Of a DNA stretch of 64,000 nt, positions 30,378-64,000 are shown piece after piece (position 1 is the first letter of the stretch; every line of letters starts with the position of its first letter). The notes beneath the pieces are model-generated. The model was given only the letters and a program-made list of their open reading frames with translations, was not told the origin of the DNA and did not search any database. The position numbers and the translations under genes are program-made. This DNA is from Eledone cirrhosa. Lineage: Eukaryota. The stretch lies in NCBI GenBank assembly GCA_964016885.1, contig OZ024741.1:59210001-59274000 (forward strand), written 5' to 3'.

Positions 30378-30660
30378 ATATATATACATATATATATACA
30401 CATATATATATATATATATATATATATATATATATATATATATATATATATATATATATATATATATATATATACACATATATATATACATATATATATA
30501 TATATATATATATATATATATATATATATATATGCACAGGTTATATTTAATTTGTTGGGATTCAACAAGCTTAAAAATTATCTCCACTATCCAGGAAGCT
30601 CCAACCGTTAAGGTTGTCTTTTTTCCGGCTATGTCAATATTTATTTATAAAACAAATCTG

Positions 30661-30726
30661 TATTTTATCTGATGAAAGCGCACCATAATTTGCCTTGGTT
30701 GCCCTTGAAATATATATAATAAAATA
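30661..30726 (+). ncRNA. Type I hammerhead ribozyme, canonical core, minimal palindromic helix III
   Basis: tattttat-CTGATGA-aagcgcacca...tggttgccctt-GAAA-tatata-TA-ataaaata; perfect 8 bp helix I. Confidence 0.85.
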
Positions 30727-30786
30727 AATATGGTTTTATAAATATAGTTTCCATTTATTAATATATTGTATATATATATATATATA

Positions 30787-31692
30787 TGCTCTGAAAGTAC
30801 AGTAGCTAGAGTCACAACTGGATGGAAAAAGTTCAGAGAGCTTATACCACTATTGGCCGCTAAAGGGTTCTCTCTAAAAATGAAAGGCAGGCTGTATGAT
30901 GCCTGCATACGAACAGCAATGTTACATGGCAGTGAGACTTGGGCATTGTGTGCAGATAATATACGCAGACTGGAGAGGAACGAAGCTTGCATGCTCCTTA
31001 GGATGTGTAATAGTAATATACGTGAACGGAAAAGCATAAATGAACTAAGGGAGAAATTAGGAATAAGAGGAATCAGATGTTGTTTACTCGAGAGAAGACT
31101 ACGTTGGTATGGTCACGTGATGCGCATGAAAGACGACAGCTGTATAAAAAAGTGCAGGGCGATAAAAATAGACGGTAGCTATGGAGTAGGCAGACCCAGA
31201 AAAACCTGAGATGACTTGATAAATTCCGACCTCACACACTTACAACTCTCCAAAACAATGTCACTGGACCGAGATCTCTGGCGCTACACAGTAATACAGA
31301 AGACCCGCCTTGCCTAAGTACAAAGCGAAACCTACAGTCAGTAGGCACCCCTAACAAAAATACACCCCCGCCCCATCCACACCACCCCTTTCGAAGTAAA
31401 TTTATGTTGGTACCACAACATCCAGGCCGAAATAAATGAGGTCGTGTAGGTGTCACGAAAAGAAAACACACAGTCCACGCTGTAATGTGGCCGTGTAGGT
31501 AACACGGTAAAAACCTCCCAGTCCACACTTTAAACGTGGTTGGTGTTAGGAAGGGTATCCAGCTGTAGAAAACCCGCCAGACAGTCCTATACGAGCAAGA
31601 CAACCAATCTTGCCTCAAGTGGGAAAACTCCCCGTCCAAACCCATGCAAGCGTGGAAGATGGACGTTAAACGATGATGATGATGATGATGAT
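30787..31692 (+). mobile_element. RTE family B 3' fragment with 3' UTR and (GAT)n tail
   Basis: ORF 30766-31209 CSESTVARV...RRLRWYGHV...GRPRKT; TA-flanked. Confidence 0.92.
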
Positions 31693-60008: not shown

Positions 60009-60896
60009 TTCTTTTCCCTTGTCGGAGGGGAGATAGATGAGGTTCTTCGATTTTAGGTTGGAGAGAGTGGTGAGCTGAGATTTGGTGAGGTTATGTGTTG
60101 TGCGTGTGTGTGTGTGTGTGTTTGTGAAGTATATTCGAGATGGAGTGTTTTAGCCTGATGAGTTTAGTGTCGAGTTCGTGGTTGGTGGGTGGGGGTGGAG
60201 TGGGTTGTCGGGGTGGTAAATGGGGAACTTGGGGTGGGTTGCGTGGGCGCTGTTATTTGCGGTGGCGGTTGTTAAGTTGTTGTTTTCCACGTGGTTCTGG
60301 TCTGTCTGTTCGTTAGTGTCGATGTTCTCGTTGTGGAGTTTAGACAAGATCCACTCATATTTCCGCTTGAGCCGTTTTTTCTCGTATTGAACTCTGGAGT
60401 TGTAGCACTGGTCGATTGCTTTAGTGATTTTCAGGAGCAAGTCGCCGGGTGTTATTGACAGTCGATGTGTCCGCTCTGAGAGTGTCCGCTTATGGATGTG
60501 TAATTGGCGGTTGAGATGTCGTAGGATCTGCTTAATACACGTGCGATGTATGCGGTTAATGGTGTTTTGGAAAGCTGGTGTACGTAGGCTTACTGGTAAG
60601 CGGATGTTCCTGATGGTGTTGGGGATGACATCGATTTTAAGCAGCGTTTCAGGAAAATAATTTGACAGCCAGCATTGGCCCATTTCTCCGACAGTCTAAA
60701 CAGTTCCCTTACGGATGCAAACAATTCCTGTCTCAGGTGTAAGGATAAGAGAGTATTGAAGTTTGCTTGAAGCATTGTAGAATAATAAGGTAAATTTCTT
60801 TAATATATATATATATAAATGTTTAAGCTTGTTGAATCACAACAAATTAAATATAACCTCTGCATATATATATATATATATATATATATATATATA

Positions 60897-63258
60897 TCAT
60901 CATCATCATCATCATCATCATCATCATCATCAACGTTTAACGTCCGTGTTCCACGCTTGCATGGGTTTGGACGGGGGTATTCCCACTTGAGGCAAGAGTG
61001 ATTGTCTTGCTCGCATAGGACTGTCTGGCAGGTTTTCTACAGTTGGATGCCCTTCCTAACACCAGCCACATTTACAGTGTGGGACTGGGAGGTTTTTACC
61101 GTGTTGCCTACACGGCCACATTACAGCGTGGACTGTGTGTTTTTTTGTCGTGACACCTACACGATCTCATTTGTTTCGGCCTGGATGGCGTGGCACCAAC
61201 ATAACTTTACATAGAACGGGGTGGTGTGGATGGGGTGGGGGTGGTGGGACGGGGGTGTATTTTGTTAGAGATGCCTACTGGCTGTAGTAGGTTTTACTAT
61301 GTATTTAGGTAAGGCGGGTCTTCTCTATTACTGAGTACCGCCAAAGGTCTCGGTCCAGTGACATTGTCTTGGAGAGGTGTAAGTGTGTGAGGTCGGAGTT
61401 TATCAGCTCGTCCCAGGATTTTCTAGGTCTGCCTATTCCGTGGCTACCGTCTATCTTTATTGCCCTGCACTTTGTTATACAGCTATCGACTTTCATGCGC
61501 ATCACGTGTCCGTACCAACGTAGCCTTCTCTCGAGTAAACAACATCTGATCCCTCTTATTTCTAATTTTTTCCTTAGTTCGTTTATGCTTTGCCGTTCAC
61601 GTATATTACTATTACACATCCAGCGGAGCATGCAAGCTTCGTTCCTCTCTAGTCTGCGTATATCCTCTGCGCACAATGCCCAGGTCTCACTGCCATGCAA
61701 CATTGCTGTTCGTATGCAGGCATCATACAACCTGCCTTTCATTTTTAGGGAGAACCCTTTAGCGGCTAATAGTGGTATAAGCTCTCTGAACTTTTTCCAT
61801 CCAGTTCTGACTCTAGCTACTGTACTTTCGGAGCACCCTCCCCCACTGCTGATTTTGTCACCCAGGTAACGGAAGCTGTCCACTATGTCTATAGAGCCCT
61901 CTGCGCAATTGAAAGAGTTAGTATTTTGTGGGCACTCGCTGCTACTTATTGCACCAGAGCACCGCCCACATGTAAAATCTAAGTTCTTAGTTAGCTTACC
62001 TGTGATCCCACTACATCTTTTATGCACCCATACTTTGCATTTGGGACATAAAATGGAGTTTCTACCTACGCCTTTCCTACACACTGAGCATGGCCATTTC
62101 CCGGAAGGGACCGCCGCCTTATTTTCTTTCCTACAAACTAGAACTTTAGTCTTAGCCAGGTTAATTTTAAGGCCTTTTGATTCTAGGCCGTGCTTCCATG
62201 TTTGGAATTTCTTCTCTAGCTCGGCCATTGATTCAGCTATGAGTGTCAGGTCGTCTGCGTATAGGGGTTCCCATGGGCAGCCGGTCTTGAACTCCTCTGT
62301 TATAGCCTGAAGGGCAATAATAAATAGTAGGGGGCTGAGAACAGAGCCCTGATGGACGCCAACTTTTACGCTAAACTCTTCACTATATTCGTTGTTAATT
62401 CTAACCTTGCTGACTTTCTTTATACATGGCTTGTATAGCTCTCACAAGCCATTCGTTGACACCTAGTTTTCTAAGGGCCCACCAGATAATGGAACGGGGG
62501 ACTCTGTCGAAGGCTTTCTCCAAGTCGACAAAAGCTAAGTAGAGGGGTTTACCTTTAGCTAGGTACTTCTCCTGTAGTTGACGTACAATGAAAAGAGAGT
62601 CTGTGGTACTTTTGCCTGACACAAACCCGAACTGCATTTCATCTAGGTCAATTCTCTCTCTGATTAGTTGCGCTATTACTTTTTCCGTGACCTTCATGAC
62701 CTGGTCGATTAGTTTAATGCCTCTATAGTTACTCCTATCTAGGGCATCTCCTTTACCCTTATAACAGTTAACGATGATGCTGCTATGCCAGTCCTTCGGA
62801 ACAACCCCATTCTGTACGACTTGGTTAAGTATCCGGGTGACCAAGGTGTGTCCCACCGAGCCAGATGCCTTCAGCATCTCAGCAACTATTTCCGAAGGCC
62901 CAGCCGCCTTACCCGTCTTCATATCCTTGATTGCCTTACTTATTATACTACCCTCGACTAACACTGCTGGTCCCTCTATTGGGTCGATGTGGGGGAGACT
63001 GTCTTTCTCCCATTTATTCTCCTCATTTAGTAGCCTTTCATAGTGGCACTTCCAAGCTACCTTCTTATCAGCGTCGGTGATGGCAAGTACGCCGTCATCA
63101 TTAAGTACACACTTCTCCCCGACAATATCACGGTTTTCCTTGACACATTGCCTAGCAATCCTGAACACCTCACGTTTTTGGTCCTCGCGTTGTAGAACAT
63201 GCTTGAACTTTCCTTCCTCTGCTTCCCTTCTTGCGAAGTACACCTGTCTCCTAGCCTC
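60897..63258 (-). mobile_element. RTE family B, 5'-truncated, one frameshift, 3' UTR and (GAT)n tail
   Basis: ORFs 62401-63243 and 61305-62228 are near-identical to the 26248-29597 copy; (TA)n on both sides. Confidence 0.95.
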
Positions 63259-63278
63259 ATATATATATATATATATAT

Positions 63279-64000
63279 AATATATTTAGAAACACACAGA
63301 TACATGCGGACACACACATATATACATGAATGCATCCGCACCCAACTGTGAGTTAAGGGTGCCAACTTCACCGATGTTGCTCAATGAATGACTGCGACAG
63401 ACCAATTCAGTTTGAACTAGACTGAACCAGTATCAGAGTTAAAAATACATTATGAAGAGAGAAGAAACATTTAGATATAATTAGTAATAAAATGTATCAT
63501 ACCTAAACTGTTCCTAAATTCCTCGACTACGTAGTTTCGTGGCATAAACAAAAACAATATATCAAAGATATAGAGTCCTTGCGAGGTCTGCCGACTTATC
63601 AAGAGGATACCTCATTTTACTAGTCTCAAGAACGCGTCTACACGACGTGAGAAAGAATCCCAAAAGGCGGAGGGGGAGATAGTCACGCGATATAACGGTC
63701 GAGAAACAGAGCTAAGCCTCTTATAACCACGAAGAAAATACCACGGAGGCGGAGGGGGTATTCATATCGAGGCCGCAGAAGAGGTAGTGAAGAAGGCGAG
63801 AAGTATGAGTAATGGAAGCTTTCCAGTTGTCCCCACACTTCAAAGATTGCTCGACCAGAGGGAGTTATTAATATATTTAGAAACACACAGATACATGCGG
63901 ACACACACATATATACATGAATGCATCCGCGCCCAACTGTGAGTTAAGGGTGCCAACTTCACCGATGTTGCTCAATGAATGACTGGGACAGACCAATTCA
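63279..64000 (-). mobile_element. 591 bp tandem unit carrying a hammerhead (tandem pseudo-LTR or retrozyme-like); runs off the window edge
   Basis: 'aatatatttagaaacacacagatacatgcgg...gaccaattca' at 63279 and 63870, with 2 differences in about 130 bp. Confidence 0.8.
63520..63607 (-). ncRNA. Type I hammerhead ribozyme with compensatory U3-A8 core
   Basis: Minus strand: tcctc-TTGATAA-gtcggca...tgccac-GAAA-ctacgtag(palindrome)-TC-gagga; GUC triplet. Confidence 0.8.

Follow-up and report, generated by a model that had tools for sequence, protein, structure and literature searches.

What occupies the non-coding islands that lie between (TA)n arrays in the genome of Eledone cirrhosa, and what are the hammerhead ribozyme motifs found within them? 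We addressed this question in a 64,000-nt stretch of contig OZ024741.1 (positions 59,210,001-59,274,000; assembly GCA_964016885.1, 3.0 Gb), hereafter termed the window. An earlier note on this DNA had counted about 14 hammerhead motifs and had attributed them to Penelope-like retroelements (PLEs) and non-autonomous, ribozyme-bearing derivatives inserted in (TA)n. Our analysis supports the attribution and lowers the count. The islands are very probably insertions of PLEs together with retrozyme-like tandem units that carry no open reading frame (ORF), and the motifs at their 3′ termini are predicted to self-cleave multimeric transcripts. The evidence comes from a frame for a reverse transcriptase (RT) and GIY-YIG nuclease, from the arrangement of the copies, from tandem arrays and from the preference for TA targets. 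About 14 hammerheads is nevertheless an overcount, since the core is predicted to work at only four or five of the sites.

All 14 motifs can be read from the sequence (Table 1), and they represent ten mutually unrelated sequences, which we designate families A to J. BLAST searches of each motif against the window yield no further copies. Every family has type I topology, and all families except F have a self-complementary helix III or helix III loop. Between families the helices are wholly different yet paired, a property for which the sites had been picked. The earlier observation is in part borne out: four or five of the hammerheads are sound, several others are decayed or variant, and one motif is no hammerhead.

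Nine of these ten families are present in high copy number. DNA searches of the genome, whose candidate counts are lower bounds, return at least 1199 candidates for A (98-99% identity), at least 1501 for B (which also has 429 exact 31-mers), at least 1260 for D (91-95% identity), at least 976 for E (98-99%), at least 722 for G (80-86%) and at least 2393 for I. Exact 35-mers number 1,972 for C, 15,093 for F and 4,123 for J, with many of the latter spaced at 591 bp; a reversed-pattern control gives 0 for each of these three families. Only family H, with just four other weak matches (77-81% identity), is a low-copy relic.

Family B links a hammerhead motif to a protein. Of 8,000 candidates scored, 1,801 are homologues of the 571-residue product of its ORF at E≤0.001, most of them about 700 residues long, and a language-model search places this product beside clusters with HTH_animal, RVT_1 and GIY-YIG domains. 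The RT motifs F-D-I-E-S-Y-Y and Y-R-D-D are visible in the frame. An AlphaFold model of the protein (predicted local distance difference test score, pLDDT, of 76) gives 155 matches to PDB structures at E≤0.001 with Foldseek, with E values from 4e-8; RTs head the list, and the matches include DRT9, retron and group II intron RTs, LINE-1 ORF2p and R2, as well as TERT structures, which are not the best matches. Pfam searches with the B ORF and 28 homologues give no RT or GIY-YIG match at E≤0.01.

The C-terminal 160 residues were aligned with 11 homologues and two other fragments from the window. Conserved positions comprise Y30, Y43-x-G45, R54, H58, E113 and N126, along with an internal CxxC and the upstream Cys-rich linker. 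When a model of this domain (pLDDT 81) was compared with known structures by VIA-align, the highest Z score was that of I-TevI (9.3; root-mean-square deviation 2.4, 89 aligned), followed by T4 EndoII (7.6), the GIY-YIG domain of UvrC (6.1) and PD-T4-3 (5.6), with unrelated rows at 4.3 or below. Foldseek finds no significant match for the C-terminal domain alone, and the Pfam GIY-YIG model matches 5 of 14 members, all under the curated cut-off. On the strength of the structural models, we assign to the B protein the folds of an RT and of a GIY-YIG nuclease. Endonuclease-bearing (EN+) PLEs are described as having this architecture, in which a Cys-rich linker joins the RT to a downstream GIY-YIG domain (PMC8557442). 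Three more fragments with GIY-YIG-type C-terminal sequence occur in the window, and the descriptors introduced below detect no hammerhead on the expected 3′ side of the two that also include the end of the RT (1715-2300 and 49994-50696).

The copies are arranged as expected of PLEs, with pseudo-long terminal repeats, partial tandems and inverted 5′-truncated copies. Partial tandems, inverted 5′-truncated copies and terminal tails are described as a signature of PLE integration (PMC8557442). Family B forms a head-to-head pair whose inverted arms are 94-98% complementary. Family C is represented by three truncated copies in alternating orientation, and family D by a pair of inverted arms. Long, near-perfect inverted arms of this kind (about 515 nt in B, 271 nt at 99% in C, and about 278 nt each in D) would also suit DNA transposons or miniature inverted-repeat transposable elements with terminal inverted repeats, in which the hammerhead-like strings would be incidental. 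We consider this explanation very improbable. The arms of B flank an RT/GIY-YIG frame and no transposase, and coverage profiles reveal that the inner ends of the arms vary between copies, as 5′ truncation predicts. Moreover, the same families occur elsewhere as same-strand pairs and tandem arrays; for C, eight same-strand pairs 4.17-4.20 kb apart are present among the first 100 matches listed. Head-to-head 5′-truncated copies are, in addition, a known PLE pattern (PMC8557442).

The relation of these insertions to TA repeats was assessed with distinct genomic copies that have 400 nt of downstream sequence, by scoring (TA)≥8 within 400 nt 3′ of the motif. Such an array follows 20 of 32 copies of A (at exactly 70 nt), 39 of 43 copies of B (12 or 92 nt), 27 of 29 of C (38 or 204 nt), 22 of 32 of D, 18 of 21 of E (42 nt), 17 of 21 of F (20 or 109-110 nt) and 13 of 21 of J (72 nt). 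The proportion is therefore 62-93% in seven families, against a background of 20% in the window and 22% in 20 arbitrary 10-kb stretches of the genome. (TA)≥8 arrays make up about 3.6% of the bases of the window and 3.5% of those in the arbitrary stretches. In the short form of the element, 12-110 nt separate the motif from the 3′ end, and the paired distances point to alternative 3′ termini distinguished by a tail. With such enrichment and recurring exact distances, the proposal that these families repeatedly colonise (TA)n holds.

Two families extend this pattern to elements that carry no frame, in agreement with the earlier suggestion of non-autonomous ribozyme families. The family A unit in the window adjoins a (TA)n array (42150-42408) and is defined by direct repeats spaced at 484. 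It is spanned by 28-29 of 29 other loci, and the only frames listed within it are ones that run through the TA array. Elsewhere, family A forms tandem arrays of period 485 with a hammerhead in each unit, one of which (locus L026) has 6.4 units of 485 bp at 100% identity. One contig from four public runs, whose contigs are of unknown kind, contains a 484-nt back-joint, which is as compatible with a tandem array as with a circle. Family J forms an array of 591-bp units, about 2.75 in number, that continues past the end of the window, with its hammerheads spaced at 591 bp, (TA)n at both ends and no stop-to-stop frame longer than 107 amino acids. At another locus (L164), 591-bp direct repeats of J lie within a 1,084-nt perfect inverted repeat. 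A and J are thus retrozyme-like tandem families that lack an ORF and have a single hammerhead in each unit.

Where the family A unit meets the neighboring inverted PLE fragment (42936-42981), a 23-nt stretch is immediately followed by its reverse complement. The arrangement resembles the snap-back joints that template switching leaves behind.

A mechanism drawn from published PLE work might account for these forms. The GIY-YIG nuclease would nick (TA)n, and the RT would prime at the nick and copy the RNA into the site, with template jumps giving rise to tandem and inverted forms. In transcripts of tandem copies, two hammerheads could pair through their palindromic helix III to form a double hammerhead, which would free RNAs of unit length (485 nt for A and 591 nt for J). 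A host ligase may then circularise these RNAs. Minimum-energy folds of monomers mostly contain no hammerhead, and the double hammerhead is the minimum-energy dimer fold of B and J only, which is weak evidence either way.

Comparison with shuffled sequence had been proposed as a check on the motifs, and we searched the window with type I descriptors of three stringencies. The strict descriptor (CUGANGA, GAAA, U16.1 and H17, with helices of at least 4 (I), 3 (II) and 2 (III)) identifies three loci (30661, 42516 and 52658), and no match occurs in 100 global or 100 local dinucleotide shuffles. An intermediate descriptor, which tolerates a U3-A8 pair in the core and a single defect in helix II, adds 63520, and so recovers E, A, the plus-strand copy of D and J. 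Shuffles scored in this way give means of 0.15 and 0.17 and a maximum of 2, such that none of the 100 local or 100 global shuffles reaches four. At these two levels the motifs pass the comparison, and we regard these four as secure by statistics. A relaxed descriptor (at most one core mismatch, offset helix II) identifies 11 loci, compared with 2.2±1.7 (maximum 7) in 40 local shuffles. Its gains are F, the three copies of C and four matches outside repeats (10700 and 36743, and 10027 and 11217 on the minus strand), and the latter number is close to the chance expectation. F and C thus cannot be distinguished from chance by motif alone.

The 20 arbitrary stretches contain 11 descriptor loci per 200 kb, several of which are clear relatives of D, E and A, whereas about 0.5 would be expected from scaling of the intermediate-descriptor shuffle mean. 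The motif density of the window is therefore not special within the genome. Canonical hammerheads that resemble E, D and A occur in stretches from other chromosomes at L243:1303-1364(+), L243:8760-8821(-), L228:7188-7244(-) and L243:455-533(+). Two of these form an identical pair on opposite strands, 7.4 kb apart.

We next consider which of the motifs have a sound hammerhead core, defined as C3-U4-G5-A6-N7-G8-A9 with G12-A13-A14-A15.1, or the same core with a compensated U3-A8 pair. Such a core is present at 30661, 42516, 52658 and 63520, and at 44451 in the U3-A8 form. It is not present at 47803, 48179, 48601, 49237, 44094, 2896, 52842 or 57935. The additional features of a type I hammerhead, namely three helices with an open helix I, an A15.1-U16.1 pair and a nucleotide other than G at position 17, are found at the four loci identified by the intermediate descriptor and, by hand reading, in B, C, F and the consensus of G.

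Conservation within families guides the reading of the window copies. Both core boxes of family A are intact in 9 of 9 distinct sequences (84 copies from overlapping loci, with copies counted repeatedly). In family E, CUGAUGA is present in 23 of 23 copies and GAAA in 22 of 23, and CUGANGA is retained in 29 of 37 copies of D. UUGAUAA is found in 99 of 100 copies of J among the matches listed. The first 100 of the 429 exact 31-mers of family B, in order of position, comprise 63 with U3, 35 with C3 and 2 with A3, so the compensated U3-A8 form is the majority. This covariation is natural and active in vitro (PMC3088659), and is known from PLE hammerheads of Schistosoma (PMC4209133).

Three other sites (2896, 52006 and 52842) are decayed copies of hammerhead families. 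The window copy of G has the substitution G5A, and we take it to be a mutated descendant because 9 of 12 aligned relatives keep CUGAUGA...GAAA. Likewise, the window copy of H has GAAU, and is judged to be decayed because GAAA is found in 3 of 4 alignments of its relatives, one of which (L199) reads GAAA-CCAUGG-UC. The minus-strand copy of D (52006) keeps both boxes and has acquired G17 and a 3-nt insertion in helix II.

Several observations weigh against reading the islands as ribozyme-bearing PLE insertions. The B frame in the window lacks about 130-155 N-terminal residues of its longer homologues, and its RT goes unrecognized in sequence-profile searches against Pfam (including RVT_1) and the PDB. 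It is only in family B that a motif is tied to an RT/GIY-YIG frame inside the window; D, E, G, H and I are classed as PLEs by architecture alone. Between 30530 and 64000, a motif occurs in only 8 of about 26 TA-bounded islands, and 57935 lies outside any such island. There is also little change within families (A, B, E and J are 97-99% identical) or change that is mostly CpG decay (G), which renders covariation uninformative.

Other observations of this kind would favor the view that the motifs match a short, loose consensus by chance, because the DNA is AT-rich and full of repeats, and have no link to ribozymes. No Rfam hammerhead family matches the window at the gathering score. None is present among the best 150 of 206 rows at E≤10, a list flooded by matches of microRNA models to (TA)n, and the 14 short loci cut around the motifs (1.5 kb) give five matches at E≤10, all to other families. 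Long insertions in helix II and a loop-less, palindromic helix III may be the cause of these misses. The level of relaxation that lets in C and F yields about two matches per shuffled window and, in the window itself, the four non-repeat matches noted above. Finally, 57935 differs from the core at two positions, as do 13 of 13 other copies of family I, whose first box reads CAGUUGA, and by its core this site is no hammerhead.

Despite these points, we judge a chance origin of the motifs as a whole to be extremely improbable. Four canonical or compensated loci are far above the number expected from shuffles, as is the frequency of descriptor loci elsewhere in the genome. The place of the motif relative to the 3′ end is constant across unrelated families, and relatives of the old families G and H have cores more canonical than those of the window copies. 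The fixed position near the 3′ end also makes a chance origin unlikely for the motifs of C and F, despite their weak motif statistics.

A further difficulty for ribozyme function comes from the cores of C, F, I and the 47803 copy of B, which carry substitutions that mutagenesis finds strongly deleterious, as core changes generally are (PMC3088659). The motif in C, F, I and the C3/A8 subfamily of B might thus be a dead descendant of a hammerhead, spread without ribozyme cleavage, and on balance we think this probable. The altered cores CCGAAGA, CAGAAGA and CAGUUGA are family-wide: among the 100 matches listed for each, CCGAAGA is present in all but one copy of C (CUGAAGA) and CAGAAGA in 100 of 100 copies of F. 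No canonical box was found near the motifs of C, F and I (in F, the 3′ 266 nt were searched). Moreover, PLE clades without canonical hammerheads proliferate well (Craig et al., PMC8557442). Conversely, thousands of near-identical copies are fixed for these substitutions and keep the rest of the motif intact, including helix I, GAAA, U16.1, H17 and the palindromic helix III, and the U10.1/U11.1 mismatch of F corresponds to a tolerated natural variant (PMC3088659). If the F and C RNAs do still cut themselves as dimers, which seems unlikely, U4 would be dispensable in the Penelope-type double hammerhead. This would constitute a natural core variant that the accessible parts of the cited hammerhead and PLE papers do not describe.

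Several TA-bounded islands consist of a second, GC-richer repeat family that lies beside TA arrays, is (ATC)n-like at one end, includes a 112-bp tandem in its interior, and contains no hammerhead by descriptor. Hence not all such islands are ribozyme modules. Also present, and not related to the TA arrays, are long, degenerate arrays of the (AAC)n/(ACC)n type, whose higher-order periods are 33-143 bp. Rfam matches the window just once at the gathering score, at a tRNA-like sequence (35.8 bits) in which several stem pairs are non-standard; ARAGORN detects no tRNA in the whole window, and the sequence is probably a tRNA-derived repeat or pseudogene. The assembly includes four very large chromosomes (379-443 Mb), and the other contigs sampled are 45-135 Mb.

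Table 1. Features of the window, by window position, grouped by family; cleavage sites are predictions
Feature	Position	Strand	Description
Family A unit	42409-42935	+	Retrozyme-like; one 484-bp unit plus 43-nt repeat of its start
Family A motif	42516-42598	+	Canonical; ACCUU-CUGACGA-G...C-GAAA-CCGAUCGG-U-A-AAGGU; G10.1-C11.1, palindromic helix III; A42593 is 5′ side of predicted cleavage site
Family B inverted arm	44436-44947	-	Copy of last ~515 nt of element; holds motif 44451-44546
Family B motif	44451-44546	-	UUGAGAA (U3-A8), G10.1-U11.1; irregular helix II with internal loop
Family B ORF	44964-46679	+	571 codons; RT, Cys-rich linker, GIY-YIG nuclease
Family B 3′ arm	47395-47912	+	Holds motif 47803-47897; ORF-bearing copy ends at 47912
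Family B motif	47803-47897	+	CUGAGAA (C3/A8 mismatch); helix III hairpin with palindromic loop GAGCUC
Family C copy	48138-48408	-	Inverted repeat of 271 nt, 99% complementary
Family C motif	48179-48225	-	CCGAAGA (U4C), A/G pair at 10.1/11.1, helix III CAGCUG
Family C copy	48418-48850	+	
Family C motif	48601-48647	+	As at 48179
Family C copy	49089-49283	-	Begins exactly at motif; adjoins TA/TG array; inverted repeat of 195 nt, 100% complementary
Family C motif	49237-49283	-	As at 48179
Family D inverted arm	51956-52233	-	
Family D motif	52006 to ~52075	-	Decayed; both core boxes kept
Family D arm	52492-52766	+	
Family D motif	52650 (core match 52658-52710)	+	Canonical; CUGAUGA, GAAA, helix III UAUAUA; predicted cleavage after A52706
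Family E fragment	30573-30779	+	~200 bp; TA arrays on both sides
Family E motif	30661-30726	+	Canonical; CUGAUGA, GAAA, helix III UAUAUA; predicted cleavage after A30718
Family F motif	44094-44144	+	CAGAAGA (U4A), U/U pair at 10.1/11.1; 20 nt from 3′ end of element at (TA)n array 44165-44357
Family G relic and motif	2896-2988	+	CUAAUGA (G5A); within 200-bp island between TA arrays
Family H motif	52842-52935	-	CUGAGGA; GAAU in place of GAAA
Family I motif	57935-57971	-	First box CUGUUGA; second half hammerhead-like (GAAA UAUAUA)
Family J array	63279-64900	-	~2.75 units of 591 bp; runs 900 nt past window end; flanked by (TA)n at 63259-63278 and 64901-64954
Family J motif	63520-63607	-	UCCUC-UUGAUAA-...-GAAA-CUACGUAG-U-C-GAGGA; U3-A8 core, helix III CUACGUAG; predicted cleavage between 63525 and 63524
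Family J hammerheads beyond window	64111, 64702	-	
PLE ORF fragment	1715-2300	-	End of RT plus GIY-YIG (tblastn)
PLE fragment, 5′-truncated	42955-43233	-	GIY-YIG-type C-terminus; tblastn 46% identity to B ORF, E 7e-24
PLE ORF remnant, 5′-truncated	49994-50711 (ORF fragment 49994-50696)	+	End of RT plus GIY-YIG (tblastn); Pfam GIY-YIG E 0.0022, under curated cut-off
(TA)n arrays serving as landing sites	42150-42408, 30402-30533, 44165-44357, 47909-48136, 48865-49030, 49283-49455, 51860-51893		
Second repeat family	40808-41213, 30788-31690, 28688-29595, 60916-61834		112-bp tandem at 40914-41145
Second repeat family, weaker copies	near 8944-9787, 20940-21738, 6382-6529		
(AAC)n/(ACC)n-type arrays	15987-16452, 54805-56002		
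tRNA-like sequence	36053-36125	-	

These elements account for much of the unannotated sequence that separates TA arrays in a 3-Gb genome, sequence that is invisible to an ORF track or an Rfam scan. Families A and J, which are predicted to release unit-length RNAs, offer ready test cases, and family B, with its RT/GIY-YIG frame, provides another. The two very abundant families with an altered core bear on whether Penelope-like elements need hammerheads at all.

The motifs resemble the hammerheads described in PLE pseudo-long terminal repeats (Cervera and de la Pena 2014, PMC4209133) in their type I topology, in a helix III whose shortness or palindromic sequence implies that they act as dimers, in their location in PLE terminal repeats, and also singly or close together on opposite strands, in the U3-A8 covariation seen here in J and B, and in a large helix II and a copy number per genome in the thousands. 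They differ in helix III, which is a 6-8-nt palindrome or a 5-bp hairpin here and 0-2 bp there, and in helix II, which has insertions of up to 57 nt. The replacement of U4 in C and F is a change that the accessible text of that paper does not mention.

Families A and J likewise share with non-LTR retrozymes (Cervera and de la Pena 2020, PMC7229834) an organization as tandem repeats of low GC content that lack an ORF and bear one type I hammerhead in each unit, in arrays that range from partial units to multimers and in thousands of copies. At 485 and 591 bp, their units exceed the approximately 170-400 nt described for those elements. In contrast to the retrozymes of that account, the arrays here also occur head-to-head in perfect inverted pairs, and A and J are known from DNA alone. 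A recent preprint describes non-LTR retrozymes as derived from PLEs (Li, Clavereau and Pollet 2026, 10.64898/2026.07.22.740005).

The B element is most like C-terminal EN+ PLEs of the Neptune/Nematis type (Craig et al. 2021, PMC8557442), with which it shares an RT, a Cys-rich linker and a GIY-YIG domain with internal CxxC. Tandem and inverted insertions, 3′ ends that differ by a tail, and (TA)n targets are also common to both, although the tails are 80-166 nt here and 30-40 bp in the elements described in that work. The RT here escapes Pfam RVT_1, and the likeness is one of domain layout.

Hammerhead satellite DNAs of newts and schistosomes are tandem units a few hundred bp long, each carrying a type I hammerhead that performs best in dimeric form. 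In comparison, the arrays in Eledone are short, dispersed and flanked by TA repeats, and are thus more like mobile insertions than long satellite blocks. Taken together, these elements belong to biology already described (Cervera and de la Pena 2014, 2020; Craig et al. 2021). Some novelty lies only in the fixed U4 substitution of F and C, which rank as the most abundant families; the families themselves are new, and the kind of system to which they belong is known.

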